The notes beneath the pieces were generated by a model. It was not told the origin of the DNA, searched no databases, and was given only the letters and a program-made list of their open reading frames with translations. A stretch of 64,000 nt of DNA, taken from Bdellovibrionales bacterium. Lineage in GTDB: Bacteria > Bdellovibrionota > Bdellovibrionia > Bdellovibrionales > JAGQZY01. This document shows positions 17,705 through 42,299 of the stretch, piece by piece. Positions within the stretch are counted from its first letter, which is position 1. Each line of letters opens with the position of its first letter. Both the position numbers and the translations under genes were made by a program. The DNA is taken from contig JANPLN010000049.1 of assembly GCA_031426555.1 (NCBI GenBank), positions 1,223-65,222 on the forward strand, read 5' to 3'.

Positions 17705-18523
17705 ATGAATAAAACGGCGACTACCACAGCAGCTCCTGCGTCCATTTCAATGGGTTCAATCTCCTTAAAACCAGATGGTTTTTACGTGATAGCTGGTCCC
17801 TGTTCCATTGAATCCCCAGCGCAATTTAAAGAAACCGCGCAGTTTGTTAAAGAATATGGTGCCTGCATCCTACGCGGTGGCATTTTTAAAATGCGCACCA
17901 ATCCCGAAAGCTTTCAGGGCGTGGGTCTCGACGCCTTAAGCTGGGTTCGCGAAATTAAAAACGAACTTCGTATGCCTTTGATGTCCGAAATCACCGATCC
18001 CCGCCAACTCCCTGCCATGATCGATTTTTTGGATGCCTTTCAGGTGGGCTCGCGCAACATGTACAACTACGAACTTTTAAAAGATTTAGGAAAACAAAAT
18101 AAACCGGTTCTTTTAAAGCGCGGTTTCTCGGCCTTATTAGACGAGTGGACCAAAGCGGCTCAATACATCGTTCAGGGCGGCAACCAATCTGTCATGCTGT
18201 GCGAACGCGGCATTCGAACTTTCGAAACCAAAATGCGCAACACTTTGGATCTGGCTTCGGTGGCTTATTTAAAAGCCCACGAATCCTATCCTGTCATTGT
18301 GGATCCTTCCCATGGAACTGGCGCTCCTGAACTTATCGCCCCCATGGCGTGCGCGGCCATCGCTGCTGGCGCCAATGGAATCATGATCGAGGTTCATCCC
18401 GATCCAAGCCGCGCTCTGTCCGATGGATTTCAAGCCTTAAACTTCGCGGCGTTTAAAAATCTTATGATACAAATAAAGCCGTTTGTGGAAGCTGCCGGAA
18501 AGACATTGATCACCCATGTATAA
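17705..18523 (+). CDS. 3-deoxy-7-phosphoheptulonate (DAHP) synthase, type I-beta
   Basis: [29 protein letters not shown] and VDPSHGTG match the I-beta DAHPS pattern rather than KDO8PS. The start was taken at MNKTATT (17705). Confidence 0.8.
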
Positions 18524-19238
18524 AGAACCCCACGCGCCAACCATTCGCCAAATGTTTTCGGAAATCGCTCCCAGCTACGACAAAGCCAATTCGGTTTTGT
18601 CTTTGGGAATTCATCTTCTTTGGAAAAAAAAACTTGTTAAACTGAGCGGCGCAAAACCGGGCGATCGCATTTTGGATTGTGCAACTGGCACGGGCGACTT
18701 GGCCATTCTGTTTAAAGAGCAAGTGGGCGGTACTGGTAACGTGATTGGCACCGATTTTTGTGCCGAAATTTTGGCGTTGGCCCCGCAAAAAGCAAAGGCA
18801 AAAAATTTAGATGTGACGTTCGAAACCGCCGACGTCACGCAACTGCCCTACACCGATAAATCCTTTGATATCAGCTGTATTTCTTTTGGCATTCGCAACG
18901 TGGATAATTTGCAGCGCGCACTCGATGAGCTGGCTCGCGTGGTTCGCCCCGGTGGACGCGTGATGATTATGGAGTTTGGCCAAATCCAGTGGCCGGTGAT
19001 CAAGCAGGCTTACAACGTTTACTCCGACTGGATCTTGCCGCGCCTGGGAGGCCTGATCTCTGGAAATACAAAAGCTTACAAATACCTGAACGATTCAGCC
19101 AAACAATTTCCGTGCGGCGACGAATTTGTAAAACGAGCCATGGCCACAGGCCGTTACTCGTCGATGACAGTGAAGCCCCTTTCTCTGGGCGTGGCTTATA
19201 TCTACACTGGTATCGTAACTGACATCGTAAAAACTTAA
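18516..19238 (+). CDS. ubiE: Demethylmenaquinone/ubiquinone C-methyltransferase
   Basis: MFSEIAPSYDKANSVLSLGIHLLWKKK is the UbiE/MenG N-terminal signature. The SAM motif is ILDCATGTGDLA. It overlaps the DAHPS gene by 8 nt. Confidence 0.88.
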   Translation: MYKEPHAPTIRQMFSEIAPSYDKANSVLSLGIHLLWKKKLVKLSGAKPGDRILDCATGTGDLAILFKEQVGGTGNVIGTDFCAEILALAPQKAKAKNLDVTFETADVTQLPYTDKSFDISCISFGIRNVDNLQRALDELARVVRPGGRVMIMEFGQIQWPVIKQAYNVYSDWILPRLGGLISGNTKAYKYLNDSAKQFPCGDEFVKRAMATGRYSSMTVKPLSLGVAYIYTGIVTDIVKT

Positions 19239-20510: not shown

Positions 20511-22181
20511 ATGAAACACGTTTTTAAATTCACAGTTTTATCAATCATTTCACTCACAACTTTCGCAGCCTGGTCGGTGACCGAGCAAGAGTACTTGTTG
20601 CAAAACAAAACGTACACCGATGGTCTGGTTGAGTTTTTTAAAAACGAAGACAAGCTTGCCCGCCAGGTTGAGGGTCTTAAAAAAGCGAAAAAAGAAACAG
20701 AAGCTCAACTGAAAACACAAACAGCCAGTCTTGCGAGTACGACTAAAAAACTCAAAAACGAGCAAAGCACACTGACTTCTCTTAAAGACAAAGAGCTCAA
20801 TAAGGTACAACTCGAAGCCAATTTGAAGTCGCAAAAGCAACAGAACCTCAACAAGATAAATAATCTTGAGGGGCAGATCTCAAACGCTTCTAACCAACTC
20901 CAGAATATTAACTTTACAGTTTCCCAGCTGCAAAATGAAGAGAACTCGCTAATCAATAAATATAACACCCAACAACAGGTTGTGAACTTTGCCGAGAATA
21001 CTGTTCGCAATCTCGAAGACGAAATTCGTCAACTCCGACGGGACATCGAACGTGCGCAGGATCAAATCCAAAGATTGAATAATCAGATTAACAACCTCGA
21101 AGCTCAGAAAGCTGCAGAACCCGATCCGGTTATCCAGGCGCAAATCCAGGCTGAAATTCAGCAAAAGAAAAACCAAAAGCAAAACTTAAAAAGCGATATT
21201 GACTTTGCTGAAGCTCGTTTGAACTCTAAAAAGCTTCAACTCATCAATGCAGAGTCAGATGTTAGCCAAGAGCAAAATAAGTTGAGCACGATCAGAATCC
21301 AGCTCAATGGTAAACAAAATGAATTGCAATCGGCGTTCAATCAGCAAAACCAAATTAAAAACGAAGTGGACAGTCTGAAGTCGCAGAAATCGTCTTTGGT
21401 ATCAAAGAACAGCAATATCAACGCCGAACTTGATGTTCTCGCAAACTTGCCCTTCTACATCGCCGAATCCGAGAGCAAGATTCAGTCGCTGACTCAGCAA
21501 AAAGGACAACAAGAAGCCACTGTGAACCAAACTCAAGCGGCTTTGACTTCCGTCAGCGCAAATTTGGCCACAACTCAGCAGCAGCTTGAAACGTCAAAAG
21601 CTACTGTTTTGGCTCAAGAGAAAGGCCACGACGGCGTCCTTAAAGAATTTTTAACCACAGCTGCGATTGTCGCTCCCACAATTCTGCCCGAAGGTACTAT
21701 CTCTATCGATAGCACTTTGGCGACTGAACTGATTGCGACTTCCAAAGACTGGTCCGTGTTTAAGGGAACTTCCACAACACTCGGGGGCGGAAACGTGTGC
21801 GTGGCCTCAACGCAGGTTTTAGATTCTGTGTCGGGCGTTATTTCAGAACTGATGGTGGTAAAGCTTGGTGACGTTGCAAACGGTTACTCTTCGCCCTTCA
21901 TCGTTACTACTCACTCGCGCATTGCCGATCTGGTTGTGAAGGGGCAGCTAAAAACCGATAGCAGCAAATCCATCCTACTTCCGTTGTTGCAAAGCCCTGT
22001 GGCCAACGAAAAAGCGCTGATCGCCCGTTATTCCGATACAGCTTCGTTGATTTCGCACTTAAAAGCTCACAGCTCAGCAAAAGTGGAGTTCACGGTGCCA
22101 GGTGCGCCAGTCATTATCCCTTTCTCACTCCGTGGCTCCAGCGCCATGGTCAGCAAAATGCTCGAAGCTTGTAGAAACTAA
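20511..22181 (+). CDS. Secreted Q/N/K-rich coiled-coil protein with a globular C-terminal domain
   Basis: Signal peptide, then about 330 aa of heptad-like Q/N/L/K-rich sequence, then a ~170-aa Cys-flanked domain (W..F..GGGNVCVAS...FSLRGSSAMVSKMLEAC) whose layout vaguely recalls IalB-type domains. Function unknown. Confidence 0.55.
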   Translation: MKHVFKFTVLSIISLTTFAAWSVTEQEYLLQNKTYTDGLVEFFKNEDKLARQVEGLKKAKKETEAQLKTQTASLASTTKKLKNEQSTLTSLKDKELNKVQLEANLKSQKQQNLNKINNLEGQISNASNQLQNINFTVSQLQNEENSLINKYNTQQQVVNFAENTVRNLEDEIRQLRRDIERAQDQIQRLNNQINNLEAQKAAEPDPVIQAQIQAEIQQKKNQKQNLKSDIDFAEARLNSKKLQLINAESDVSQEQNKLSTIRIQLNGKQNELQSAFNQQNQIKNEVDSLKSQKSSLVSKNSNINAELDVLANLPFYIAESESKIQSLTQQKGQQEATVNQTQAALTSVSANLATTQQQLETSKATVLAQEKGHDGVLKEFLTTAAIVAPTILPEGTISIDSTLATELIATSKDWSVFKGTSTTLGGGNVCVASTQVLDSVSGVISELMVVKLGDVANGYSSPFIVTTHSRIADLVVKGQLKTDSSKSILLPLLQSPVANEKALIARYSDTASLISHLKAHSSAKVEFTVPGAPVIIPFSLRGSSAMVSKMLEACRN

Positions 22182-22186
22182 AGGAC

Positions 22187-22639
22187 ATGATGATGAAAAA
22201 TGTTTTGTTCACTTTGATTTTAAGCGCGCTCCCCTTCGCGGCAGCTTCTGCAGCGACTCTCAACCTAAAGGCCCAATGCACGGTTTCAGGTGAGTATTCC
22301 GAAGTGGACAACGACGAGGCAAAGTCCAATGGTTGGACTGTTTCCGAAGATGAATACGGTGACGTTTCTTATGTGATCGACATCGCGACGGAGACTTCGC
22401 AGCTACCGATCAATAAATCTTTGGGTGACCTCAATGTGAGCGTAACTAAGGATGGTCGATTGGAACTCGGAATGAGTGTTGGCGATGCCGATGCTGGCGC
22501 CGATTCCAGCTTGCTGCTCCCACAAAAAAATGGCGAGCTGTTGCCAATTGCAGGCCTCCAGTGGACCGTCTCCGGCGGTGACTATGCGTCCGGTATGTGG
22601 GGCTTCAATTGCTCCACCGAAATTTCAATCAATAACTAA
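22187..22639 (+). CDS. Hypothetical secreted protein
   Basis: Signal peptide MMMKNVLFTLILSALPFAAASA. It starts 5 nt after the upstream stop, so is probably co-transcribed. Confidence 0.45.
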   Translation: MMMKNVLFTLILSALPFAAASAATLNLKAQCTVSGEYSEVDNDEAKSNGWTVSEDEYGDVSYVIDIATETSQLPINKSLGDLNVSVTKDGRLELGMSVGDADAGADSSLLLPQKNGELLPIAGLQWTVSGGDYASGMWGFNCSTEISINN

Positions 22640-22681
22640 TCCAAAGGCGAAAAGCTTTTGGCGATAAAAAAGGAGAACACA

Positions 22682-23065
22682 ATGAATCAATTATTTTTAA
22701 CTCTCTCTGCAATCTGTTTAATGACTACAGCCAACGCCAAAGTGGTTGCTGAGAATACTCAAGTTGTTGAAGTCGAACTCAAGTCGGTGGTTTTGGAAGT
22801 GAGTGCAAAATGTAAATCACCAAAGTACGAAGACGACACTTTCCAAGTTTTTTTCTCCGAGGCTTCCTATGCTGAAGTTTCTTCCTACCAAAAAAGTGGC
22901 TACTCCTACAAGCTCCTGGATAAAAACTGCGGAAGGTACGATGCAACTAAAACACCTCTTTCAAGCAATGACTATGAAACTGTTCAGATTTTGATGGTAA
23001 ATGCTTGGGAAGCTGAAGAAATTTTGGCCGAAGCCCTCAAAAAAGCCTGGAACTCTGTTAAGTAA
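22682..23065 (+). CDS. Hypothetical secreted protein
   Basis: Start at MNQLFLTLSAICLMTTANA (22682), preceded by AAAAGGAGAA. Third gene of the putative 20511-23065 operon. Confidence 0.45.
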   Translation: MNQLFLTLSAICLMTTANAKVVAENTQVVEVELKSVVLEVSAKCKSPKYEDDTFQVFFSEASYAEVSSYQKSGYSYKLLDKNCGRYDATKTPLSSNDYETVQILMVNAWEAEEILAEALKKAWNSVK

Positions 23066-23104: not shown

Positions 23105-24666
23105 ATGACCTTTATCCCGTTTTTGGTACCAGTAAATTATTATTTAGATATTGGGTTATTCCTTAATAGAGAGTTTTTGATGGAGTATTCGGAGTTATTT
23201 CCGAAACCTGCTAGGTCATGTTACCAATGCATTCAAGAACACTCAACGGACAACTGACCAGGGTTTAGGCAAGGCAGAATTCTCATTCTCAAAGATTGTC
23301 CTTTAAAAGATTGATAAGATTCTTTCATCTGTATTAGTCAAGAAAATGTATCTACGATAAAGACCTTAATTTAAAAATCTCAACAACTGATCGTCGAACC
23401 TTGATACAGGGACCATTGTCGATTTGTATACGGCCTCGCCAGTTTGACGAGTCTGAGTAGTGACGCTCCCGCTCCAAAAATCTGGATTTCCGTTATACAT
23501 TTCCCATTTTAGACAAGGCACACTTTCAGATTTAAATTCAGGTCGATATATGAGTGGTGTTCCTCCTCCGACCATTATACCTTCCAGTAAGCCAGTTGAT
23601 GCGTTGAACACAGGACCTCCTGAATTACCTGGGTACGCAGGTATATTGGTATTGTCGTCAAAAGGTGAATAAGACGATTTTGACTCTGTTAAGTGCCCAT
23701 TCGAGTACATCCTTGGTAAACCAAATGGAGTGCCAATGGTGTACAAAAAATCTTCAACACCAATTTTTTGGTTCAAGTTTAAATTCACAGGACCAATTCC
23801 TTCTGCTTTCCTATCTAAGCGAACTAAAGCTATATCCATGTTTTTTTCATGTTTTCTATATTCTATATGTATACATGAAAACAACTGAGACTTTTCATGA
23901 TGGGTGGATAGGTTCTGGGGATCAATACCAAAGATAATTTTCTTTTCTTTACAAGAATCTCTGCTAATACAGTGCGCTGCTGTTAAAATTAAGTCCTCGC
24001 CAACCAAAACTCCTGCACAGGTGCCACCGCTAATTCCTTTTGATAAATAAAAATCTTCACCGGCGCAAAAATCTTTAAATCCGATTGATTGAGTGTGGAT
24101 ACTGAAAACACCATTCCACCAATCAGAAATGCTTTGATTAACAAAGCTCTTGTCAACGATCGCGGCTGTGGCAGCTAAGTTCTTTTGAACTTGATGGTCG
24201 TTAATCTTAGAACTGTCGAAAAGGCCACTACTCGCTAAGCTGTAATTCATTATACAGCAATTTAATGCTAGAACTTGTAGTGATGGTAGTAAGTTTCGCC
24301 AATTCATATTGTATGATGATAGCAAATACAATGCCCGATAAATCGGCGTAAATTGTTGATGACGAATTCAAAGTGTCTAAATCTTTTACAAAGAAACGTA
24401 AAATGTAATTTAAACGCCCCTCTCCGGTTTTAACTTTCACTTGCCATTAAAGTAAAAAGTATCCTGCTAAGTGAACAAAACCAAAGGTTTGAGGCTCACC
24501 AAGTGCTGACAAACGCTCTATAGACCTGATCAGCCTATGAAATAATCCCAACCAGCAGAATCTACCCGTTCTATGAAACAAGTGCCATTATTTTAGGGTC
24601 ATCATCTCATATGAGAAAACAGCAATAACCCGTTGCCATGCAAGCACCGGGTTGACGCGAGTCTAT
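23105..24666. other. AT-rich islet (putative horizontally acquired insertion) carrying one protease gene
   Basis: Visibly lower G+C than the flanks and bounded by the identical 19-nt direct repeats. No integrase or transposase is present. Confidence 0.4.
23366..24331 (-). CDS. Secreted trypsin-like (S1) serine protease
   Basis: Triad contexts LTAAHCI, DIALVRL and GNSGGPVF. AT-rich codon usage. The start could instead be Met9 (24307). Confidence 0.7.
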   Translation of the reverse strand: MYLLSSYNMNWRNLLPSLQVLALNCCIMNYSLASSGLFDSSKINDHQVQKNLAATAAIVDKSFVNQSISDWWNGVFSIHTQSIGFKDFCAGEDFYLSKGISGGTCAGVLVGEDLILTAAHCISRDSCKEKKIIFGIDPQNLSTHHEKSQLFSCIHIEYRKHEKNMDIALVRLDRKAEGIGPVNLNLNQKIGVEDFLYTIGTPFGLPRMYSNGHLTESKSSYSPFDDNTNIPAYPGNSGGPVFNASTGLLEGIMVGGGTPLIYRPEFKSESVPCLKWEMYNGNPDFWSGSVTTQTRQTGEAVYKSTMVPVSRFDDQLLRFLN

Positions 24667-30667: not shown

Positions 30668-31348
30668 TCACCCTTTCTTTGGCAATTGCCAGCCGCTCAA
30701 CTTAATCTTTTCTTCGATCTCATCGATGGGCAAACCCGCAATATTTTCGAGCGTGCCGGTGAAGTTTTTTACAAAATCTTCACCTTGATATCGAAAGGTG
30801 GATCCCAGCTCCACCCCCTCTGCTTTATCCAACTCGCGATGCTGATTGCGAATCAACTGCCGAGCTAAACTCTGAATTCCATAAGAACCCGCTTTATCCA
30901 TGGGGTCACCGCTTTTTACGTAATCCCATATTTCTTCTTTGTTAAGATGGCGAAACTCCACTTGCGAAGTGCCATGACCCAAAACAATTTCGCTGGTCTG
31001 GGTATTCCATAGACAATAGCCGGTGATCACCCGGTGAGTGTTACCCGAAAGTTTTTGCAGGGTTTCGAAGGCGTCTTGCTGGTCCTTGGGCTTGCCTAAA
31101 ATCTCATCTTTATAGACAACAATGGTGTCGGCCGACAGAACAACGCTGGGATGCATTTTAAGGCCTTCTGGGCTCTCGACCAAGGCCTGGGCTTTGCGTT
31201 TTGCCAAATCCTCAACAGCCAATTCAACCCTCAGGTTTTCATCAAGAAATTCCGATATTTCAACTGGAAGGGTGTGAAAAACGTACCCGCGTTTTTGGAG
31301 AAAAAACTGGCGACGCGGTGATTTTGAGGCAAGCACAAACCTCAGCAT
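30668..31348 (-). CDS. maf: Maf-like nucleoside triphosphate pyrophosphatase with a C-terminal extension
   Basis: LASKSPRR N-terminal motif and DKAGSYGIQ block. An extra ~35 aa follow the Maf core. Confidence 0.8.
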   Translation of the reverse strand: MLRFVLASKSPRRQFFLQKRGYVFHTLPVEISEFLDENLRVELAVEDLAKRKAQALVESPEGLKMHPSVVLSADTIVVYKDEILGKPKDQQDAFETLQKLSGNTHRVITGYCLWNTQTSEIVLGHGTSQVEFRHLNKEEIWDYVKSGDPMDKAGSYGIQSLARQLIRNQHRELDKAEGVELGSTFRYQGEDFVKNFTGTLENIAGLPIDEIEEKIKLSGWQLPKKG

Positions 31349-31376
31349 GTACGTAGCTTAATCACAAAAGAAATTT

Positions 31377-32279
31377 ATGGCTATGGATTTGTTGCTCTAT
31401 TTAGGATTATTTTTAGCGGGCACTGCCACGTTTTGGGTTGTGTATTCTTTGTTTGCTGCCAGCCAAGAAAGCAAATCACTTTCGTGGGCCACCGGCGACG
31501 AACCTAAAAAATCAAAGTCGCCGTTGATCAACCTTTCTCGTCCCCTCGTACACCAATTTACAATCAAGTACGCGCTTCGTTTTAAGAGCGAAAAAATGCG
31601 CAAAGACATCGATTACAAAATTGTCACGGCAGGAATGGAAGAAGAGATTTCGGTGGATGAGTTTATCGGCCTGAAACTTTTTTGGGGCGTACTTTTTCCA
31701 ATTCTCATTGTGCTATTAAATTTTGCACTGCAGTTGGGCTATCCAACAGCCGTGTTAATTATGCTCTCTCCCATCGGCTACATGCTTCCCGATTTCCACG
31801 CCCGGGCCGAAAAAAACAAGCGCATGAAGTCCGTGGTGATCGATCTTCCATTTTTTATTGAGCTTCTCGCATTATCAACGCAAGCTGGGGCCGATTTTTT
31901 TGGCGCCATTCAAAAAATCACCACCAAGGCACCCGAAAGCGTTCTCGCTCAAGAGCTAGAAAAAGTTTTGCGCGATATTCGACTCGGCAGCACGCGCGAA
32001 AAAGCTCTCAAAGACATGGCCTATCGCCTCGATGTGTCCGAAGCCACAAGTTTTGTGAACGTTCTCACCGATGCCGACGCCACGGGCGCCAGTGTGGGTG
32101 AAGTTTTAAAAGAGCATTCGGCGCAAATGCGTTTGGAGCGCTTCGTCCGCGCCGAAAAAGCCGGCGCCCGCGCCTCGCAAGCCATGCTGATTCCGTTGAT
32201 CATGTTTATTCTGCCCGCCGTCTTCATCGTGGTGTTTGCTCCCGTAGCGCTGCAATTCTTGTACGGAGGCAAGGGATGA
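31377..32279 (+). CDS. Type II secretion system F-family inner-membrane platform protein (TadC/TadB-like)
   Basis: Single T2SS-F domain pattern (LPFFIELLALSTQAGADFFGAIQKI ... ATGASVGEVL ... AGARASQAMLIPLIMFILP) and three TM segments. Confidence 0.75.
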   Translation: MAMDLLLYLGLFLAGTATFWVVYSLFAASQESKSLSWATGDEPKKSKSPLINLSRPLVHQFTIKYALRFKSEKMRKDIDYKIVTAGMEEEISVDEFIGLKLFWGVLFPILIVLLNFALQLGYPTAVLIMLSPIGYMLPDFHARAEKNKRMKSVVIDLPFFIELLALSTQAGADFFGAIQKITTKAPESVLAQELEKVLRDIRLGSTREKALKDMAYRLDVSEATSFVNVLTDADATGASVGEVLKEHSAQMRLERFVRAEKAGARASQAMLIPLIMFILPAVFIVVFAPVALQFLYGGKG

Positions 32280-32617
32280 CGTTAGTACTTAGAGCCAATC
32301 AACAAATCATCTGTTCTCAAGTCCGCGTGGCTAACAGTTTTGCAACCCGTGTGGTGGGCTTGATTGGCACGAAACAATTGAATCAGGAGGGGTTATTCAT
32401 CCCCGGCTGCAATTGGATTCATACGTTTTTTATGTCCATCCCCATCGATGTGGTTTACGTGGATCGCCAGGGTGGAATTCGTAAAATTGATCATCGCATA
32501 AAGCCATGGCGTCTTGGAAAGCCCGTGTGGTCTGCAACCGATGTTGTGGAATTGCCTGCTGGGTTTGCAGAACTTAAGTCGTTAAAAATAGGAGACACAC
32601 TACATGTGGGCCATTAA
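32276..32617 (+). CDS. DUF192 family protein
   Basis: ANSFATRVVGLIG...GLFIPGCNWIHTFFMSIPIDVVYVD matches the DUF192 (COG1430) core as I remember it. ATGA overlap with the upstream gene. Confidence 0.65.
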   Translation: MTLVLRANQQIICSQVRVANSFATRVVGLIGTKQLNQEGLFIPGCNWIHTFFMSIPIDVVYVDRQGGIRKIDHRIKPWRLGKPVWSATDVVELPAGFAELKSLKIGDTLHVGH

Positions 32618-34274
32618 AATCCTCAATGGAGCACAGTCTGGAAAGATATTTCCTCTCATAAAGGGAAATAATATTCTCGGTCGCTCTGTCAAAGCGAACA
32701 TTCGCCTGGCCGACAATGGTGTTTCTAAAAACCATGCGCAGATCTTTGTGACGAACGATAAAGTCATTATCTCTGATTTAAAATCGAGCAATGGAACCTT
32801 CGTCAATGGTATCCAAGTGCAGAATCACGGATTAAAAACTGGTGATAAAGTTTTAATCCACCAAACTATTTTTACCATCTTTCAACTTCCCGACAACGTG
32901 GTGTTTGCAGATCAAAAGTTAAACAAAGCCATGCCCTCGCGGGGTCTTGCCAACTCACCAGCGAACACACCAGCAAACTTCCCGGCCCATGGAAGCAACG
33001 CCCTCCAATTGCAACACGATCCCCATTCGCTGATGATGCATGATTCGGCTTCAGCACAACAGCCCTCCATGGCCCCGGTGTTTGAACAACCTAAACTTTT
33101 AGAGATCCTTCGCGAACGCACCGAGCAGTATGTGGACGAAGTGGCCATGCCGCCGATCTACAAAGCCGCCGAAAAATTCGACTTCAAACATATTCTCGCT
33201 GGCTTCACCATCGCCTTTATTTTTCTCACCACATTCCTCGCCATCTTTCCGCTAGCCAAACTGACCCGCGAAACCGTTCTCACAGAAAGTAAACGCCGCG
33301 CTCTCACAATGGCCCGCAACCTGGCGCAAATGAATCGCAAGGCTCTGGCCGATGACTCCGAGCTTTCGTTAACAACCGATTTTGTAGCTCGCGAGTCTGG
33401 CGTCGACAAGGTGATGATCATCTCTGGACAAAGCGGCGCGATCCTTGCCCCCGCCAATCAGATGGGTCAATTCCTCAAGGACCCGTTCGTGATTAGTTTG
33501 CGCAACAGTCACAGCGAACAAGTGGATTTGATCAACGATTCCCAGGTGGCAGCCAGTGTGCCCATGAAGTTTTTCAATGCAGAGATTGGCGATTCCACCG
33601 TGAAAGCTTACGCCATCGTTATCTATAACGTTGACCCCCTGGCCGTGGATTTTGGCAGAACCCTTAGTTTATTTATTCAAATCTTTTTGATTGCCTGTGT
33701 GATCGGCGCGGTTATTTTTGTGATTCAGTATCGGCTCATCATTTATCCGCTTAAAAATTTGAATCGTGAAATCGATCGTTCGTTGAGCGAGGGCAGTAGC
33801 AATATTCAAATCAATTTCCAACTGCCGATTTTCCAAAAATTAATTGCCAACATTAACAGTGCTCTCTCACGAATCAATGCAGATTTTTCCGGTACCGACA
33901 AAATGGCGGCTCAGTCTGACAAGTCCGTAGAAGCCTACGAAGTTGTGAAGATGTTCCCAGTGCCCGCGTTCGCTCTCGATCCGCAAACACAACAGTTCAT
34001 TGCTTTAAATCCCGCCCTCGAAGGCCACCCACTTTTTGATGGAGGCCGGGTTTTACAAATGTCCATCACCGAGCTCACAGATAAATCACTTTACGAGTCG
34101 CTGAAGGATTTAGTGGCTACTTGCGTGCAAAATCCGAACAGTGCCCACACGAACGAACTTCCCTCGCAGGGTTCCGAAAAATACGAGATCGCTGCCAAGG
34201 CTATTATTAACAATAATAAACCCAACTACATTTTATTTACAGTGATGCAAATTGTTGAGGAGGAATCGAGCTGA
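32604..34274 (+). CDS. FHA domain - 2TM periplasmic sensor-like - HAMP-like - PAS-like protein (no output domain)
   Basis: FHA signature ILGRS...VSKNHAQIF...DLKSSNGTFVNG. Two hydrophobic helices (ILAGFTIAFIFLTTFLAIFPLA; LSLFIQIFLIACVIGAVIFVIQY) bracket ~140 aa. IIYPLKNLNREIDRS follows TM2. 14-nt overlap with DUF192. Confidence 0.75.
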   Translation: MWAIKILNGAQSGKIFPLIKGNNILGRSVKANIRLADNGVSKNHAQIFVTNDKVIISDLKSSNGTFVNGIQVQNHGLKTGDKVLIHQTIFTIFQLPDNVVFADQKLNKAMPSRGLANSPANTPANFPAHGSNALQLQHDPHSLMMHDSASAQQPSMAPVFEQPKLLEILRERTEQYVDEVAMPPIYKAAEKFDFKHILAGFTIAFIFLTTFLAIFPLAKLTRETVLTESKRRALTMARNLAQMNRKALADDSELSLTTDFVARESGVDKVMIISGQSGAILAPANQMGQFLKDPFVISLRNSHSEQVDLINDSQVAASVPMKFFNAEIGDSTVKAYAIVIYNVDPLAVDFGRTLSLFIQIFLIACVIGAVIFVIQYRLIIYPLKNLNREIDRSLSEGSSNIQINFQLPIFQKLIANINSALSRINADFSGTDKMAAQSDKSVEAYEVVKMFPVPAFALDPQTQQFIALNPALEGHPLFDGGRVLQMSITELTDKSLYESLKDLVATCVQNPNSAHTNELPSQGSEKYEIAAKAIINNNKPNYILFTVMQIVEEESS

Positions 34275-35266
34275 TGAGTTCGCAGGCTCTGAGTTCCTCA
34301 CCATTTTCGGCATTCCAGGTGACCCTGCGTCTCCTGGCGGGCCCCAATAAGGGAGATGTGTATCGCATCCTTCCCCCGGGCGCCGTTATCGGTCGAGATG
34401 CTCTGTCCTGCCAAGTCGCCTTGATGGACGCGCGAGTGAGTCGTCAACAGTGTCGTCTGGACTATAAAATGGAAGGCCTCACGGTTGAAGATCTGAGCGG
34501 TAAACAAACGACCCTCGTCAATCAGCGCCCCATCGAGGGAGAGCACCTCCTGCAAAATGGGGATATTCTTACCTGCGGCGACACTCATATCTCCATCGAG
34601 ATTCAGTCGGACGGCCTCACCACAGTTCCGTCGCTGAGTGCGCCTGCGCACAGGCCTGCTTCTCTCTCTTCTACATCTTATATTCCAGAGCCTGCAATGC
34701 CGCAAAATCAACCCCCGTCCATGGATCCGCAATCGAAGCGGTTGTCGATCATCGTTGGGATTGGTTTGGTTGTGGGTCTTGGACTTTTTCTGATGCCAGA
34801 AGACGCGCCGAAACCTCCACCAAAAATAGCAACTTCGGAAACAATCAACGAAAGCATCGCGGCCGTGCAAAAGCGCCAAGAGGAAATCTCAAAAAATACA
34901 AGCCAGCTGACGGAGCTCGAGCTTTACAACAAACGTTCAGCGCAAAAACATTATATTCGCGGCTTGCGAGACTTTCAGAATGCTCGCTACAATCGCGCCA
35001 TCGAGGCATTTCAAACAGCGCTCGCCACCGACCGAAGTCATGTGATGGCTCGACGATACTATAAATTAGCCGAAAAAAAGCGACTCAACGAAGTCGATTA
35101 CCATATGGACCTTGGTTTAAAATACAAAGACAAGTCGATGTATAAAATGTGTATCGCTGAATTTGCTCATGTTCTACAGATTCTCAATCAGCCGACAAAT
35201 AAAAAGTATCAATTGGCTAAAGAACAAATCAAAGAATGCCGTCTGTCAATACAGGAGGGTGTATAG
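34274..35266 (+). CDS. FHA domain - TM - TPR-like protein
   Basis: FHA pattern VIGRDALSCQVALMDARVSRQQCRL...TTLVNQ. TM is LSIIVGIGLVVGLGLFLM. The C-terminal region has helical TPR-like repeats. TGATG overlap with the upstream stop. Confidence 0.7.
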   Translation: MSSQALSSSPFSAFQVTLRLLAGPNKGDVYRILPPGAVIGRDALSCQVALMDARVSRQQCRLDYKMEGLTVEDLSGKQTTLVNQRPIEGEHLLQNGDILTCGDTHISIEIQSDGLTTVPSLSAPAHRPASLSSTSYIPEPAMPQNQPPSMDPQSKRLSIIVGIGLVVGLGLFLMPEDAPKPPPKIATSETINESIAAVQKRQEEISKNTSQLTELELYNKRSAQKHYIRGLRDFQNARYNRAIEAFQTALATDRSHVMARRYYKLAEKKRLNEVDYHMDLGLKYKDKSMYKMCIAEFAHVLQILNQPTNKKYQLAKEQIKECRLSIQEGV

Positions 35267-37269
35267 TGGCCCGACTTAAGGTGAGACGACATCAAGTGAA
35301 TTTTGCTGAGCTCGAATTGGAGCCTGGCAAAACCTATATTATAGGTCGTCGTGAAAACGCCGACGTAATTCTCTCATCTGATCCGGGGATCTCTCGCCAG
35401 CACGTTTCCATTGAGTTTACCGATAGCGCTTGGGTTGTAAAATCTCTTTCAACCCACCTACCTGTTTCCTACGAGGGTAAAACCCATAACACATTATCGT
35501 TTGTTGATGGAATTGCGCATTTCTACGTCACTCCCTATGAATTTGAATTACAAATGCTCAACGAAGAACCTTCGCTTAAAACAGACGAGGCCAAACCTCC
35601 GGTGGGGCTGGACCCCAGCGCTCCCGCCAACGGTGAAGTGGATGAGAAAATTCGCGAGCCTCTGCAAAACGGTCAGTCCGAGGTTCCTGCCTACGATGCA
35701 GAATTGTCGTTTCATGGTAACGAAGAGCCGACGGGCGAAGTGCATTTGGCCCACGAACCGTATATTAAATTTATGCACGAGAGCCATTCCGAATCCCTAC
35801 GACTTAAGGGTAACAAGTGGGTGGCTGGTCGCGACAATATCGCACAGATTCAGTTGGACGATAAAAAAGCCAGTCGTCAGCATTTCAGCTTAGAAAAAGT
35901 CGGCGAGCAGTTTTACATTAGAGATCTACAAAGTGCCAATGGCACCTTGCTAAATGGTCAGGAGCTCCCGCACCATGAGCCGCGCGAAATAAAAAGCGGC
36001 GATATTATCACCGTCAATCAACTCACGATGATTTTTGAAATGCGCGATCTTTCGTTTTCGGAAAAACTCAAAGATCTTCCTCTTCAAGCCTATAGCGGTC
36101 CGTTGATCTTAAGTTCGCAGGAGTGGGATTTGGCTGCTGATTCTCACAAGCCGTCACTGCGACTCGAAACCAAAGACCTGGCGCAGGTTACGGGGTCTGT
36201 ACAAAAAGTAACCCCTCCGGTTGCGAAAAAGAATCATCTTCGAACCGCTCTGCTTGGAGCAGTTGCTTTAATCATTATTGGCTATGCGCTTTACCAGCAA
36301 AACAGCCCCGCCCCCCAACGAGATCTGGCCGCAGCAGGTGTAAAAACGTTTGAATCCTTATCTCCAGAGGAAAAAAAGTTTGTGGCCGATAGCTACAACT
36401 CGGCTCAAAACTATTACCAAGAAGGTCGCATTCAGAATGCGCTCACGCAACTCGCATACGTGCATAAAACTTTGCCCTTCTACAAGGACTCTCGCGAGCT
36501 AGAAACAAAACTTGTGGAAGCCCAAGAAACTCTTCGCCAAAAAGAATTTATTGCTCAGCAACGACGTGAGCAGGAAGAAACCCGCATTAAAGTGCAAAAC
36601 ATCGTTGCCGACTGCCGCGATCGCTATCGCGATTCGGTCGACGTCTCCGCAGTGAAAGGGTGTCTCACCGGCGCCCTGCAACTGGATCCCGAAAACTCGG
36701 ATGCTCTCTCCATTGTCGCCGAGATTGAACTGCGCTTGAATCAAGCCCTCGAAGCCGAACGAAAACTCAAAGAATTTAACGACAATGCGCAAAAAGGCCG
36801 CGATCTGTTTTATCGGGCTAAAAATCTTTTGCAAAACAAAGACTACCATGAAGCTATCACAGCATTTTCAGCCCACATCAACGCCAATCTGCCCGATCCC
36901 GACAAGTTAAAGCCAGCATCGCAGAGACAAGTGGCTTCCATCGAAAATCACATCGAAACACAAAAAAGATCCTTGATGGGTAAAGCCAACACGCTACTTA
37001 ACAGTGGCAACCTGCGCGATGCGGTCGTGGCCGCCGAACAGGCCAAGCGTGTGGATCCCTATGATTATTCCATCGCTAACTTTATCGAACAAACCCGCCG
37101 TTCGCTGGAAGTGAAGATGCGCCCTCTGTATGAAGAGAGTGTGATCGAAGAGCGCTTTGGTAATTTCGAAATTTGCAAAGCCAAATGGCAAGAGATCGTG
37201 GCCAAGGACATCCCAACAGGCGAATATTATCTTAAAGCGAAGCGCAAACTTCAGCAGTACGGACCGTAA
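35266..37269 (+). CDS. Tandem FHA-FHA - TM - TPR-rich protein
   Basis: Start reassigned to GTG 35266 (AGGAGGG lies 7 nt upstream; TAGTG overlap). FHA1 is IIGRRENADVILSSDPGISRQHVSI. FHA2 is VAGRDNIAQIQLDDKKASRQHFSL...SANGTLLNG. TM is LRTALLGAVALIIIGYALY. About 330 aa of TPR-like helices follow. Confidence 0.75.
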   Translation: MARLKVRRHQVNFAELELEPGKTYIIGRRENADVILSSDPGISRQHVSIEFTDSAWVVKSLSTHLPVSYEGKTHNTLSFVDGIAHFYVTPYEFELQMLNEEPSLKTDEAKPPVGLDPSAPANGEVDEKIREPLQNGQSEVPAYDAELSFHGNEEPTGEVHLAHEPYIKFMHESHSESLRLKGNKWVAGRDNIAQIQLDDKKASRQHFSLEKVGEQFYIRDLQSANGTLLNGQELPHHEPREIKSGDIITVNQLTMIFEMRDLSFSEKLKDLPLQAYSGPLILSSQEWDLAADSHKPSLRLETKDLAQVTGSVQKVTPPVAKKNHLRTALLGAVALIIIGYALYQQNSPAPQRDLAAAGVKTFESLSPEEKKFVADSYNSAQNYYQEGRIQNALTQLAYVHKTLPFYKDSRELETKLVEAQETLRQKEFIAQQRREQEETRIKVQNIVADCRDRYRDSVDVSAVKGCLTGALQLDPENSDALSIVAEIELRLNQALEAERKLKEFNDNAQKGRDLFYRAKNLLQNKDYHEAITAFSAHINANLPDPDKLKPASQRQVASIENHIETQKRSLMGKANTLLNSGNLRDAVVAAEQAKRVDPYDYSIANFIEQTRRSLEVKMRPLYEESVIEERFGNFEICKAKWQEIVAKDIPTGEYYLKAKRKLQQYGP

Positions 37270-37270
37270 A

Positions 37271-37945
37271 ATGGAATTTAACGAGCGCTCCTACGGTGGC
37301 AAACTTTTTCGTCCACGACCCGAAGTCTATATTTCAGACGACAAAAAATTATTTATTTTAGCGACACCATGGGGCCAGCGGCGCATCGCGAAGATTTTTA
37401 TTGAACGCGTGACCAGCGAACTACAAGACTTTAGCGTGGACCCCGATCATACTGTTTTTTCTATGCCGTCAGATACTTTGAGCGAAAAAGAAAACCGCTT
37501 ACGACTTGTGCTTTTATCGTTGCACGAAGATCTTCGAGAGGAATTTAACTCCGAAGCGTTAACCTCTGGGCTCGAAATTTTATGTATTCTCAAGGATGAA
37601 AAAAAAATATCTTGGTTTAAAGTGGGCGCGCCGTTTTTAGCCGTATTGCGCGCAACGCAGATTCTCCCCCTGCATCACCCTGTAGATTTGAGTTTCGATC
37701 ACAGCACCACCGAAACGTTACCGCCTTTACCAAAACAACTTTACGGTTTATCTCAGCAATCGAGCCTCGAACATGGAAATTTGATGCGCCGGGAAGGCGA
37801 CCGTCTGCTGATGGTGGCGCGCAGTTACGTGCCATTCAGCACTCTGCTCATCAAACCCGACGAAATGAATCTCGACAACATCACCCTCAGCCTCGCCACC
37901 GACAATGAAGAACAACCCTTCTGGCTCGGTCTCCTTGAACTATAG
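37271..37945 (+). CDS. Hypothetical protein; PP2C/SpoIIE-like fold pattern with substituted catalytic residues (candidate pseudophosphatase)
   Basis: ATG lies 1 nt after the upstream stop. LFILATPWG, FKVGAPFLAVLR, GDRLLMVARSYV and a C-terminal LSLATDNEE...LGLLEL follow the order and spacing of PP2C motifs (LFAVADGMGG, VGDSR, GDRLLLCSDGL, DN-T-VV). The metal-binding Asp positions appear replaced. Comparison by eye only. Confidence 0.35.
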   Translation: MEFNERSYGGKLFRPRPEVYISDDKKLFILATPWGQRRIAKIFIERVTSELQDFSVDPDHTVFSMPSDTLSEKENRLRLVLLSLHEDLREEFNSEALTSGLEILCILKDEKKISWFKVGAPFLAVLRATQILPLHHPVDLSFDHSTTETLPPLPKQLYGLSQQSSLEHGNLMRREGDRLLMVARSYVPFSTLLIKPDEMNLDNITLSLATDNEEQPFWLGLLEL

Positions 37946-39706
37946 CATTCCAGGCGCGAAGCCCACAGACAGTGGGATTTGATAGGATTCTACTTTTTTG
38001 CGCAATGCTGTTTTTTCGGGAAGGTGCAAGTAAAGCTCCGCCAGCGATGGTCGAAGATACGACAACGAATCCACATCCCAATTCAACTCAAGGTAAATAT
38101 TTGCGTACACCATCTGTTTGGCCTTCATATAGGAACGGTACTGACGAATAAAATTCTTTTCCCACTGCGAAGAGCTGGCCTCGCTGCGGTGGCGCTCCCA
38201 ATCTAACAATGCGAGAAAAAGTGTGTCGCGACAGCGACGAAATAAACTCTCTCTGGGTTTCTCCACAAAAAACCGCTCGCAAGCTCCTGTCAAAGTGACA
38301 GCGGTGGCGCTTTCCAAATGTCTCGCGGCCAAGTACCGATGCAGAGGATAAGTGCTTTCTTTGAGGCGCTCCCAATCTTCGGTGCGCAGCGCTTCGTTGG
38401 CAGCCATTTCATCGGCGTAGTGGCTTTTGTTAATTTTAGCCACGTCGTAGGCCCAATGCACACTTCCCGACATCTTGGCGTTGCGGAAATCTTTCATAAA
38501 GTCATAGGCTTCGGAAGGATAGGATTGCAAATCGTAGCTTTGATCCAATTTATTTTTTAGCCACCGAATTTTTTCGTGATCGAGCTGAGATTCAAAAAGC
38601 ACTGTGCCTTCGTTCTTATCCACCAGCGTGTGATAAATCTGCCAGCGCTTTTGCGGCACCACCAAATAGTCGGCCGTACGCAAACTTACAAGCGGCGACT
38701 TTGCCATCCACCAGCGCGCCCAATCTGAGCGTATTTCAAGAAACGTCGGCGGCGACTCTTTCCACTCATCCATTTTTTGCATGACAAAATCCACCATGGA
38801 GGTGGACTGCTCCAAACTGTCGCGCAGAAGCTGTCCAATATTTTTCATGGATAGCAAAAAATCCACCGACTTGGCTTCTTTCATCTGCGGCGTTTTAATA
38901 AACAGCGGCACGTGAACATTTTCGCGAAACACGTTTTCGCGCCATAAAAACGACCTGCGGTTCATGGGAGCCTCGCCATTGAGGCCCACTAAGATCACAA
39001 ACGATCTATCCCATAGTCGCTGTTTTTTTAGTTGGCGAAAAAACTCACCCAGTGATTCTGCAATCTCTTGTCTTTGGGCGGTGACACTTTTTTCGCGTTC
39101 TTTTTTTTCGTCGGTGAAGGTTTGTACAAACGGAAACTGCATATCGGCTAGAAAGACCGTGGTTAAGGTGGGCTGGGGCCCCTGCTCGATCCATTTTAAT
39201 GTGCGTGTTAACAACTGGCTGGCTGGCGTGTAGGTGTCGGAACTCTGATCGAAATCGTCATCAAAAATCTCGTACCCTTGTTGAAAACCCGATTTGGCTA
39301 AGAATGGGGGGCCGCCACTAAAAAATGCCGTGCGGTACCCGGCCAGCAGAGCCTTCTCCGCCAGCGTCACTACGGGTGGGGCAATTCCGTCGTTTCCATT
39401 GTGAAAAACTTTGTGCTCTGCCGCATCTAAACCGGTCAGCAGACTGGCCAAACTGGCTTGGCTCATGGTCGATGGGGTGTAAAAGTGCGTAAAGCGCAGT
39501 GCCGAATCGCAGAGCTCCTGAAAACCGTCGGGCTCCCCTGTCTCGTCGAAACACGACGTGTTTTCAAAACTGAGAGACTCAACGGCAATAATAAAAATCG
39601 GCGGTTTGCCCTGCGAGCGCGAGCCCCATGGGGAACACCCAGAGAGCATTAGAACCAAGATCGAAATCAATCCCACTTTTTTTTGCGCAAAGCACATATG
39701 CATCAT
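37940..39706 (-). CDS. Lipoprotein with an N-terminal sulfatase/alkaline-phosphatase-superfamily domain
   Basis: Lipobox LMLSGC. PPIFIIAVESLSF...FYTPSTMSQASLASLLTGL parallels the sulfatase N-terminal block, with Thr/Ser in place of the Cys of CxPxR. The C-terminal ~300 aa are unassigned. Confidence 0.6.
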   Translation of the reverse strand: MMHMCFAQKKVGLISILVLMLSGCSPWGSRSQGKPPIFIIAVESLSFENTSCFDETGEPDGFQELCDSALRFTHFYTPSTMSQASLASLLTGLDAAEHKVFHNGNDGIAPPVVTLAEKALLAGYRTAFFSGGPPFLAKSGFQQGYEIFDDDFDQSSDTYTPASQLLTRTLKWIEQGPQPTLTTVFLADMQFPFVQTFTDEKKEREKSVTAQRQEIAESLGEFFRQLKKQRLWDRSFVILVGLNGEAPMNRRSFLWRENVFRENVHVPLFIKTPQMKEAKSVDFLLSMKNIGQLLRDSLEQSTSMVDFVMQKMDEWKESPPTFLEIRSDWARWWMAKSPLVSLRTADYLVVPQKRWQIYHTLVDKNEGTVLFESQLDHEKIRWLKNKLDQSYDLQSYPSEAYDFMKDFRNAKMSGSVHWAYDVAKINKSHYADEMAANEALRTEDWERLKESTYPLHRYLAARHLESATAVTLTGACERFFVEKPRESLFRRCRDTLFLALLDWERHRSEASSSQWEKNFIRQYRSYMKAKQMVYANIYLELNWDVDSLSYLRPSLAELYLHLPEKTALRKKVESYQIPLSVGFAPGML

Positions 39707-40990: not shown

Positions 40991-41141
40991 CTAGGTCCAT
41001 GGAAAAAACTGACATGGTAGTGAACTCCTTGTAGGCGAATTTTTACAAAAATTAGCTAACCACCGGCAGATATTGAGTTTTAGCCCATATCCTTCGATGG
41101 TCTTCGTGGGGTTAGCAATAGGGTTTTTCATAAGGGGATTT

Positions 41142-42299
41142 ATGACTTTCGTTCTATCGTTCTTAATGGCAGCACTGGCCAGTGCTGCCTGCAATGATTT
41201 GTCGTCAAACATCCACGAGTCCGTGGCACAAAATACCTTTAAGCTGGTTCCGCGAAACTTTTACGCGGCCACTCTTTCCGAAGAGACTGCACGATCTCTG
41301 CATCAAAAAAGTTGCTTATCTGGTGGTTTATCCATCAGCGATCAAATGAATTGCGATCTTTTAAAAACCTGTACTGGCGACACCTGCAAAATTGAGTACG
41401 GACCCTATGGCAGCGCCTTTTTGTCCAAAAAAACTGGCTTACTGATGTCAGCCTGGCACGTGGTGTTTCCAACCCATGCCGCGGGTTTGATTTTTCTGCA
41501 AGGCCGTCTTTCTCTATTTCCCTACGAAGAGATGCAATCCATCCTAACCGTTTTGCAACCCGATTTTATTTTGTTAGACCAAAACGATAAAATTGTTTTT
41601 GATACAAAAAACAATCCCTCTCATTATGCGTTTTGGGGAAACCCCCTTTCGACTGTTTATCAAACCGAAGGTCACAAGCAGCACCAACCCTATGGTTATT
41701 TTGAAAACGCGCCCGACGACTATGTGGCCATCGACATCGGTTCTGTAAAACTCGGCACGGGCCTTCCGTTGACCTCGCTTACAAAAAAAGAAGATCTCGC
41801 AGCTCAGTGTTTATACTCAGGTGGGTACCAGTATCACGATGGCAAATTTCGTATTTCGTCTGGAAAAAAAGAAGCCGTTAAGACCATGCAAAGTTTGATC
41901 TCCTATGCAGTACCATTCCAGTTGAATCCATTTCCCTTAGAACTTTCGCAAATTCTAGAACTCGATAACGAGCAGACTCTTAAGTTGATGGGCTACAGCG
42001 ATGAAAATATCCAAAAAACTCTCGCACAGTATGATGAAGCAACTGTTCGTCACTCAATTGAAATTGTTCTTGCCACGCAACCTCGACACCTGAGGGATCA
42101 AGCGCTCGAAAGTCATCCTGCGGTATTATTTTATGATGCAAAGGTCTTACCCGGTCAAAGTGGTGGGCCCATCGTCGATGAAAGTGGCACCGTTGTCGGC
42201 ATCACAACGAATAGTTTTTTAGACAAGTCCATCGCGATCGATGGGCACTTTACCTCTAACGGTGCTGCTGGGTTTTTTATAGGCTCGCTAACACTTTGA
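41142..42299 (+). CDS. Secreted trypsin-like (S1) serine protease
   Basis: SAWHVVFP (His), DDYVAIDIG (Asp) and GQSGGPIVDESGTVVGITTNS (Ser). The start is uncertain: the track starts at TTG 41073, and I prefer MTFVLSFLMAALASAAC (41142) as the signal peptide. Confidence 0.65.
   Translation: MTFVLSFLMAALASAACNDLSSNIHESVAQNTFKLVPRNFYAATLSEETARSLHQKSCLSGGLSISDQMNCDLLKTCTGDTCKIEYGPYGSAFLSKKTGLLMSAWHVVFPTHAAGLIFLQGRLSLFPYEEMQSILTVLQPDFILLDQNDKIVFDTKNNPSHYAFWGNPLSTVYQTEGHKQHQPYGYFENAPDDYVAIDIGSVKLGTGLPLTSLTKKEDLAAQCLYSGGYQYHDGKFRISSGKKEAVKTMQSLISYAVPFQLNPFPLELSQILELDNEQTLKLMGYSDENIQKTLAQYDEATVRHSIEIVLATQPRHLRDQALESHPAVLFYDAKVLPGQSGGPIVDESGTVVGITTNSFLDKSIAIDGHFTSNGAAGFFIGSLTL

Follow-up and report, generated by a model that had tools for sequence, protein, structure and literature searches.

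Gene organisation of the tadC locus

The stretch of DNA analysed here (the window) comprises 64,000 nucleotides from an uncultured Bdellovibrionales bacterium (GenBank assembly GCA_031426555.1, contig JANPLN010000049.1, positions 1,223 to 65,222 of the forward strand), whose closest relatives are metagenome-assembled genomes (MAGs) at 83–96% identity. Six plus-strand open reading frames (ORFs) at positions 31377–37945, identified from the ORF listing and by direct reading of their junctions, encode a TadC-type inner-membrane platform protein, a DUF192 protein, three membrane proteins carrying FHA domains and a PP2C-fold protein, and we compare this block with Bd0470–Bd0475 of Bdellovibrio bacteriovorus HD100. 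The genes, here designated g1 to g6, and their upstream neighbour are listed below.

30668–31348 (−): maf, divergent from g1; Maf Pfam match from residue 3
31349–31376: divergent spacer, 28 bp between the start codons of maf (31348, − strand) and g1
31377–32279 (+): g1, TadC-type inner-membrane platform protein, 300 residues; positional counterpart of Bd0470/KilH; TGA stop overlaps the g2 ATG at 32276 (ATGA)
32276–32617 (+): g2, DUF192 protein, 113 residues; counterpart of Bd0471; overlaps g3 by 14 nt
32604–34274 (+): g3, FHA domain and sensor body, 556 residues; counterpart of Bd0472; stop shares base 34274 with the g4 ATG (TGATG)
34274–35266 (+): g4, bitopic FHA protein, 330 residues; counterpart of Bd0473; stop shares base 35266 with the g5 GTG (TAGTG)
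35266–37269 (+): g5, bitopic protein with two FHA domains, 667 residues from GTG 35266; counterpart of Bd0474; followed by a 1-nt gap
37271–37945 (+): g6, soluble PP2C/PPM-fold protein, 224 residues from ATG 37271; counterpart of Bd0475; final gene of the block

The ORFs and all five junctions are as described in the initial annotation, which had proposed a six-gene coupled operon, and GGAGG-like ribosome-binding sites precede g2, g3, g4 and g5; the block is one co-translated operon. The order of the block is kept in 36 related loci, down to 26–35% protein identity, as expected of genuine rather than chance ORFs. Longest-ORF calling would place the starts of g5 and g6 further upstream, at ATG 35236 and TTG 37157, but these are probably not real, orthologue alignments beginning at 35266 and 37271, the two starts that the initial annotation had chosen. 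Because only 28 bp separate maf from g1, the operon promoter must overlap the maf coding sequence at least in part; a scan for consensus promoters and terminators over the operon returned nothing above chance level. At the other end, the last 6 nt of g6 (37940–37945) overlap the end of a convergent sulfatase-family gene (37940–39706, − strand), leaving no room for a terminator between the two.

Domain content of the six proteins

The T2SSF, DUF192 and four FHA domains that had been read from the translations are all recovered as Pfam hidden Markov model (HMM) matches, and the TPR repeats assigned to g4 and g5 are recovered marginally. As HAMP, PAS and PP2C domains are not detectable by Pfam or NCBIfam models on the window proteins, these were tested by structure, and the HAMP-like, PAS-like and PP2C-like readings were recovered by AlphaFold2 modelling followed by Foldseek searches. 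Hydropathy analysis gives four hydrophobic segments in g1, two in g3 and one each in g4 and g5, and none in g2 and g6, which look soluble.

The Pfam T2SSF match of g1 (PF00482; E 9e-16, 58.4 bits against a cutoff of 25.2) covers residues 160–287, and the four hydrophobic segments lie at approximately residues 5–23, 96–114, 109–127 and 269–287. GspF and PilC carry two T2SSF domains each. With one T2SSF domain, a size of ~300 residues and several transmembrane (TM) segments, g1 fits the TadC class, and it is 51–98% identical to its counterparts across 25 related loci. No tadA, tadB, secretin or flp gene was found beside g1 within the 64-kb window, in which the main non-nested ORFs of at least 120 residues were scanned for kinase, ATPase and secretin domains and every frame for the Flp motif; Pkinase, T2SSE and Secretin domains and the Flp motif were all absent, so that the earlier remark that no kinase, ATPase, secretin or pilin is encoded nearby holds across the whole window. 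The position of tadC apart from the tad core does not count against the TadC identity of g1, since HD100 shows the same separation.

The DUF192 match of g2 (PF02643) is similarly clear (E 1.6e-16, 60.6 bits against a cutoff of 27), and since it contains no hydrophobic segment by hydropathy, g2 has neither a predicted membrane span nor a signal peptide. In related loci the DUF192 gene is always translationally coupled to tadC or placed directly after the T2SSF gene. No relevant publication connecting DUF192 proteins with pili emerged from a literature search.

An FHA protein with a kinase-less sensor body

The third protein combines an N-terminal FHA domain with a body built like that of a sensor kinase (AlphaFold2 model, mean predicted local distance difference test (pLDDT) score 80), arranged as follows.

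Residues 1–94: canonical FHA domain (Pfam FHA, 6.2e-16)
Residues 106–162: disordered linker (AlphaFold2 model)
Residues 197–215: TM1, within a long helix (hydropathy and AlphaFold2)
Residues ~259–342: periplasmic alpha/beta domain, PAS/Cache-like (AlphaFold2 model)
Residues 356–374: TM2 (hydropathy and AlphaFold2)
To residue 437: two HAMP-like helices (AlphaFold2 model)
Residues 440–550: cytoplasmic PAS-like domain (AlphaFold2 model)

The top Foldseek match of the model is full-length WalK (9a5d_A, E 1.3e-13, 389 columns), with residues 165–550 superposed on the TM, extracytoplasmic PAS, TM, HAMP and PAS part of that kinase; the matches that follow WalK are phosphothreonine (pThr)-binding FHA domains. 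Several g3 homologues also carry a Pfam PAS match (PF00989). Neither a DHp (dimerisation and histidine phosphotransfer; HisKA) nor a HATPase_c domain was matched by Pfam in g3, and the protein ends at residue 556, directly after the PAS-like domain. As modelled, g3 is thus a sensor body and not a kinase, and since it stops after the PAS-like domain with neither DHp nor catalytic domain, any output would have to pass through protein contacts or the N-terminal FHA domain. The GR, SxxH and SxNGT motifs of this FHA domain are invariant in 26 sequences. It also matches the NCBIfam model of EspA (1.1e-16), far below the cutoff of that model.

Bitopic FHA-TPR proteins and the FHA residue pattern

Both g4 and g5 place FHA domains before a single TM helix and a helical domain after it.

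g4, residues 19–108: FHA domain (Pfam FHA, 2.4e-13); phosphate-contacting Arg41 and Ser56 kept, β6-β7 loop degenerate
g4, residues 157–175: TM helix (hydropathy)
g5, residues ~4–95: FHA1; GR and SxxH invariant, NG absent
g5, between FHA1 and FHA2: disordered linker holding the conserved Thr156
g5, residues 174–258: FHA2, fully canonical
g5, residues 325–343: TM helix (hydropathy)
g5, residues 344–667: periplasmic TPR domain with a conserved Cys449/Cys465 pair

Pfam FHA matches g5 in two stretches (3.5e-27). The periplasmic domain of g4 is helical and TPR-like, with a conserved Cys293/Cys322 pair, and the conserved cysteine pairs of both proteins fit a periplasmic location of their C-terminal parts. 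TPR_2 matches are marginal (E = 0.025 for g4; 5.9e-6 for g5, whose 26.5 bits fall just short of the cutoff of 27). Comparison of the two periplasmic parts by hhalign identifies them as remote paralogues (probability 89.7%, E 1.9e-6).

In alignments of 26–29 orthologues from related loci, the Arg (GR) and Ser (SxxH) that contact the phosphate never vary in any of the block's four FHA domains. The His and the NG loop are also kept, without exception, in the g3 FHA domain and g5 FHA2; NG is lost in the g4 FHA domain and g5 FHA1. The g3 FHA domain superposes on the pThr-binding FHA domains of Rv0020c/FhaA and GarA/OdhI with root mean square deviations (rmsd) of 1.0–1.5 Å (Foldseek). Judged from these residues, the canonical FHA domains of the block would read pThr. 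Thr156 of g5 (window 35731–35733) is 93% conserved in an otherwise variable, disordered linker, and together with Thr61 of g6, described below, it is a candidate phosphosite or FHA ligand.

A PP2C-fold probable pseudophosphatase

No Pfam or NCBIfam model matches g6, and a search of the Protein Data Bank (PDB) with the g6 family profile returned noise, with no PP2C match by sequence. The structure model, built with 40 homologues as input, is confident (pLDDT 90.3, predicted TM-score (pTM) 0.87), and its best PDB matches by Foldseek are all PPM/PP2C proteins: tPphA (2y09; E 7.9e-13, TM-score 0.66), PstP, PppA, Stp1 and SpoIIE. A further match is the PP2C domain of RssB (3f79), which is catalytically dead. 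One g6 relative, P0432, passes the Pfam SpoIIE cutoff (6.2e-6; 26.7 bits against 25), and six others match SpoIIE weakly (E 0.0028 to 0.32). The family is sizeable, with 442 representatives at E ≤1e-3 among 50%-identity clusters.

For residue mapping, the sequence of PstP was verified against the PDB and aligned with the g6 family profile by hhalign, for register only; this register agrees with the reading from motifs and secondary structure. The phosphate-binding Arg20 of PstP corresponds to Arg14 of g6, which is invariant, and the metal ligands Asp25, Asp38 and Asp118 (the last binding the third metal) correspond to Val19, Thr32 and Ala120. By motif, Asp191 falls on Arg184 and Asp229 on Phe217. 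Of the acidic residues of the family, E102, D139 and D177 alone are invariant in an alignment of 40 members; none of the three is at a metal position, and no conserved acidic residue was found at any mapped metal-ligand position in these sequences. We are confident that the metal site has been lost, though the alignment falls short of proof, and g6 is most likely a PP2C-fold protein unable to hydrolyse phosphate, a probable pseudophosphatase, as the initial annotation had proposed.

Thr61 is 97% conserved in the g6 family and sits in the sole segment of at least three residues with pLDDT below 50. Residues 57–61 (D57...T61; window 37439–37453) belong to this otherwise variable, disordered loop. 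In one related locus on a low-GC contig (L034, 13300–14241) the two halves of the PP2C fold of the g6 orthologue are separated, at the flap region, by ~90 inserted residues of ANP/ETS low-complexity repeats, which shows that the fold can accommodate a long insertion at this point.

Conservation and genomic context

A scan of GTDB contigs with a pattern of the g6 family, Y[GS]G[KQ][LI]FRPxP, identified 33 loci, 32 of them labelled Bdellovibrionota (Bdellovibrionales, Pseudobdellovibrionaceae, Bdellovibrionia) and one (L007) labelled only as Pseudomonadota bacterium. The six genes have the same order in every GTDB locus long enough to tell, with protein identities from 98% down to 26–35%, and three further metagenome contigs bring the number of loci to 36. 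This answers the call for a synteny check across Bdellovibrionota made in the initial annotation, the order being kept throughout, with g4 and g5 broken in one locus: in L030 (6968–9995) their counterparts lie in order as frameshift-broken tblastn fragments, through either pseudogenisation or poor assembly, and g1–g3 and g6 are intact.

The window block is flanked upstream by maf, proC, divIVA, an MFS transporter gene and valS, and downstream by genes for a sulfatase, exbB/exbD, a protease, and lipoate and 2-oxoacid dehydrogenase functions. Most related loci share the divergent maf-tadC pair, as does HD100, where Bd0469 is maf. Three loci retain an intact block despite changed flanks. L034 has a restriction-modification system beside it and L036 lolA and mreB; in L012 (11863–19290) genes for IS110, IS66 and DDE transposases follow the block and dacB and lspA precede it, and the usual maf/proC and sulfatase/exbB neighbours are absent. 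A mobile or horizontally acquired island was ruled out for the window block by flat GC content and by housekeeping flanks that are syntenic across genomes.

Elsewhere in the window, directly after recR at 62154–62750 (+), lies a clear orthologue of MglA (1.7e-70 to Myxococcus xanthus MglA, PDB 6h17), 24 kb from the tadC operon and outside it. In B. bacteriovorus, MglA works with RomR at the prey-invasion pole. RomR is described as the hub that positions the Tad machine (bioRxiv 10.64898/2026.07.08.737194). Three genes for trypsin-like serine proteases, one of 843 residues, lie at 7893–10424 (−), 23366–24331 (−) and 41073–42299 (+); three such genes in 64 kb would fit a hydrolase-rich predatory genome. 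A run resembling the menaquinone pathway occupies 10457–19238 (−), with genes carrying chorismate-binding, thiamine pyrophosphate-dependent, alpha/beta hydrolase, enoyl-CoA hydratase, UbiA prenyltransferase, o-succinylbenzoate synthase (OSBS) and AMP-binding domains, and is followed on the plus strand by DAHP synthase and ubiE genes. At 20511–23065 (+) a 556-residue coiled-coil protein, with weak SMC-like and SlyX-like matches only, is followed by ORFs of 150 and 135 residues that match no family. The small bacterial signal recognition particle RNA (Rfam RF00169, 61 bits) is encoded at 59389–59484 (+), just upstream of dnaX, and no tRNA genes were found in the window.

The counterpart operon in B. 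bacteriovorus HD100

In HD100, Bd0469 is annotated as maf, Bd0470 as a T2SS F family protein (TadC), Bd0471 as DUF192, Bd0472, Bd0473 and Bd0474 as FHA proteins and Bd0475 as hypothetical (PMC12034629 supplement), and the window shows the identical gene order and annotations, maf being divergent in both. Lengths also agree closely: Bd0474 and Bd0475 have 674 and 228 residues against 667 and 224 for g5 and g6. At 330 residues g4 is shorter than Bd0473 (386 residues); in a related locus (L035) the counterparts of Bd0473, Bd0474 and Bd0475 have 386, 676 and 233 residues. The published map of Bd0474, two cytoplasmic FHA domains, a TM helix and an extracytoplasmic (periplasmic) TPR region, is the layout of g5, and tadC is encoded away from the tad core genes in both genomes.

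Duncan et al. (2019) described Bd0470–Bd0475 as an operon, in which a transposon mutant of Bd0470 (TadC) neither attached to, killed nor rounded prey, and a Bd0474 mutant attached but did not kill or round prey, both defects being complemented (PMC6561027). Bd0474 binds Bd0075 in a two-hybrid assay (PMC12034629), the bound part being the periplasmic TPR domain of Bd0075, and AlphaFold-Multimer pairs Bd0473 with Bd0475 at an interface predicted TM-score (ipTM) of 0.604 (PMC12034629); STRING groups maf with the FHA genes (PMC12034629 supplement). More recently, Tesseur et al. (2026) reported tadC to lie outside the main tad locus, in the vicinity of genes for FHA-, TPR- and PAS-domain proteins, could not obtain a tadC deletion, located TadC-mCherry at the invasive pole, and found the Tad machine to be required for prolonged attachment, prey remodelling and invasion (bioRxiv 10.64898/2026.07.08.737194).

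The operon is therefore not new: it has been published and studied by experiment in B. bacteriovorus, and the window adds a representative from an uncultured lineage. The overall interpretation of the initial annotation is partly supported: its view of an accessory module with the Tad core encoded elsewhere matches the separation of tadC from the tad locus in B. bacteriovorus (bioRxiv 10.64898/2026.07.08.737194), and its suggestion that the combination of genes is undescribed falls, as this corresponds to Bd0470–Bd0475 (PMC6561027, PMC12034629). This analysis adds a structural identity for two families, the Bd0475 family as PP2C pseudoenzymes and the Bd0472 family as WalK-like sensor bodies without a kinase; it also distinguishes canonical from degenerate FHA domains, names candidate phosphosites and documents very stable synteny across Bdellovibrionota. 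In the literature searched we found no mention of a PP2C pseudoenzyme fold in the Bd0475 family and no paper combining Bdellovibrio, PP2C and FHA; for the third gene we found only FHA and PAS labels near tadC, and no kinase-less WalK-like sensor body.

Proposed function of the block

The block is probably the tadC locus of a Bdellovibrio-like predator, corresponding in position and architecture to HD100 Bd0470–Bd0475, in which a TadC platform and an accessory control and assembly module are translated from one operon. The five lineage-specific accessory proteins look like an inner-membrane control and assembly module of a Tad (type IVc, Kil-like) machine. In such a module the three membrane FHA proteins would place four FHA domains on the cytoplasmic face, near TadC in the TadB/TadC platform and the Tad motor, and the PAS/Cache-like domain of g3 and the TPR domains of g4 and g5 would sense or bind envelope partners or a prey-contact cue in the periplasm, partly via Bd0075. 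A Hanks-type Ser/Thr kinase encoded elsewhere could phosphorylate threonines, candidates being that of the g6 Thr61 loop and Thr156 in the g5 linker, and these marks would be read by the canonical FHA domains, those of g3 and g5 FHA2. In this relay g6 would bind phospho-sites or serve as an adaptor, without enzymatic activity, and g4 would be the likeliest protein for it to pair with, given the AlphaFold-Multimer pairing of Bd0473 with Bd0475. The output would be a switch of the Tad machine after prey contact, from attachment to prey remodelling and invasion, which fits the phenotype of the Bd0474 mutant, a strain that attaches to prey and does not round it.

In its strongest form, which we offer tentatively and hold to be possible at best, the relay would consist of readers only: a kinase-less WalK-like sensor, a PP2C protein that has lost its metal site and four FHA domains would together gate the Tad pilus between adhesion and prey entry. 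The pseudo-PP2C would hold or shield pThr, on its own Thr61 loop or on a partner, and so turn the periplasmic sensing of prey contact into altered activity of motor and platform. If true, this would be a new mode of control for a type IV filament machine, specific to Bdellovibrio-like predators.

A number of points weigh against the assignment and the mechanism. The orthology with Bd0470–Bd0475 is deduced from gene order, annotation, protein lengths and the neighbouring maf gene rather than from sequence alignment; the GTDB scan with the g6 motif met MAGs and no cultured Bdellovibrio, and protein searches, including one started from the most divergent g6 relatives, returned MAG names and no cultured organism. 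The phenotype of TadC loss is not cleanly assigned, because the five genes downstream of Bd0470 may be subject to polar effects of the transposon insertion, and the ipTM of the Bd0473-Bd0475 pair makes it a grey-zone prediction. The hhalign alignment of g6 with PstP is non-significant (probability 0.6%), the residue mapping being a weak alignment combined with motif reading. Finally, none of the block proteins has a known Ser/Thr kinase, phosphosite or phospho-dependent interaction.

The FHA proteins might instead be structural, forming a phosphorylation-independent ring or scaffold of the SctD type around the TadB/TadC platform that would need no kinase. SctD proteins (YscD/PrgH) share an N-terminal FHA fold, a single TM helix and a periplasmic domain with the bitopic g4 and g5, all four FHA domains of the block also match Pfam Yop-YscD_cpl, the NG loop is lost in the g4 FHA domain and g5 FHA1, and no kinase was found in the window; in M. 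xanthus, MXAN_4649 is annotated as PrgH-like (PMC8460266). The NCBIfam SctD model (TIGR02500), however, scores 25–33 bits on the block proteins against a cutoff of 86, and YscD and PscD fit the g3 FHA domain far worse (rmsd 5–11 Å) than the pThr-binding FHA domains do. The FHA-like domain of SctD has lost its pThr-binding residues; the phosphate-contacting Arg and Ser are kept in all four domains here, and every canonical pThr-binding residue in the g3 FHA domain and g5 FHA2 across the 26–29 orthologues, and the periplasmic parts are TPR- or PAS-like, not the ring-building motifs of SctD. We regard a purely structural block as rather unlikely; taken domain by domain, a structural role is possible for the g4 FHA domain and g5 FHA1 and unlikely for the other two, and it would be compatible with signalling by the module.

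Two further explanations concern parts of the block. That g6 is an active, atypical PPM phosphatase erasing the pThr marks that nearby FHA domains read, in the way that PppA acts for Fha1 in type VI secretion, would agree with its PP2C fold, with PppA among its top Foldseek matches, with the invariant Arg14 at the phosphate-binding position, with one homologue having been named PrpC by JGI and with relatives that pass the SpoIIE cutoff; the absence of E102, D139 and D177, its only invariant acidic residues, from the mapped metal ligands, and the lack of a PP2C match in the PDB profile search, make an active enzyme improbable. The FHA, TPR and pseudo-PP2C genes could also serve envelope or division control, tadC being their neighbour for historical reasons, in the manner of the mycobacterial FhaA/FhaB(FipA)-PstP-PknB cluster. 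The conserved neighbours maf, proC and divIVA are a division-associated set, FhaB/FipA is among the best NCBIfam matches of the FHA domains, and the g3 sensor body resembles WalK, a kinase of cell-wall homeostasis. Yet tadC is translationally coupled to the other genes and the six stay together where the flanks change, the Bd0474 mutant was both obtained and tested in an axenically growing strain background and was blocked specifically in prey killing and rounding (PMC6561027), and the Kil clusters of M. xanthus show the same association of TadC, FHA and FHA-TPR genes (PMC8460266); a division role accordingly strikes us as very improbable indeed.

The locus bears on how Tad/Kil machines are switched on at prey contact in Bdellovibrio and Myxococcus, an open question for which FHA proteins have been named as suspects (PMC8460266, PMC12428579). 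The six-gene tadC block is among the most stable gene arrangements across Bdellovibrionota, and its two least-characterised members, the Bd0475 and Bd0472 families, now receive a structural identity. The conserved residues indicate targets for mutagenesis that groups working on Bd0470–Bd0475 could use: the FHA Arg and Ser, Arg14 and Thr61 of g6, and Thr156 of g5.

Comparison with known systems

A parallel outside Bdellovibrionota, named in the initial annotation and borne out by the published cluster, is the Tad-like Kil predation machine of M. xanthus. Seef et al. (2021) identified Bd0470 as the orthologue of KilH (PMC8460266), and KilH, a TadC homologue, is listed beside MXAN_4649 (FHA) and MXAN_4648 (FHA and TPR) (PMC8460266 supplementary file 1), so that in Kil cluster 2 (MXAN_4648–4652; PMC8460266, PMC12075869), as in the window, a TadC homologue lies near FHA and FHA-TPR genes. 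Recruitment of the FHA-TPR protein KilD to prey contacts precedes pilus formation, and in a 2025 review the FHA proteins encoded in the kil clusters are named as ‘promising candidates’ for linking contact with behaviour. The two arrangements also differ. Myxococcus KilH clusters with KilG (TadB), KilB and pilins, unlike the window tadC; the listing of Kil cluster 2 lacks a DUF192, a PP2C-like and a PAS-sensor FHA gene, all three of which the window block has; and, in contrast to the bitopic g4 and g5, KilD has been described as a cytoplasmic protein.

Single components have relatives of known function. WalK-type kinases share the TM-PAS-TM-HAMP-PAS body of g3, which lacks their DHp and catalytic domains, and EspA of M. 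xanthus is an FHA-containing kinase, to whose model the g3 FHA domain has only the far-below-cutoff match. The C-terminal domain of RssB (3f79), like g6, keeps the PPM fold without catalysis, and the RssB type serves protein binding; g6 differs in being a stand-alone protein of 224 residues that lacks a receiver domain and resembles RssB in fold but not detectably in sequence.

In the type VI secretion system of Pseudomonas aeruginosa (PpkA, PppA, Fha1), as in the block, FHA and PP2C-fold proteins are encoded with an envelope machine, and g6 is structurally close to PppA (6jkv), one of its best matches. Unlike that pathway, the tadC locus has no kinase in the block or the window, its PP2C-fold protein lacks acidic residues where the catalytic positions map, and its four FHA domains are carried by three membrane proteins where type VI secretion uses one soluble Fha1. 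What the type VI pathway offers for the tadC locus is a logic of contact-triggered activation.

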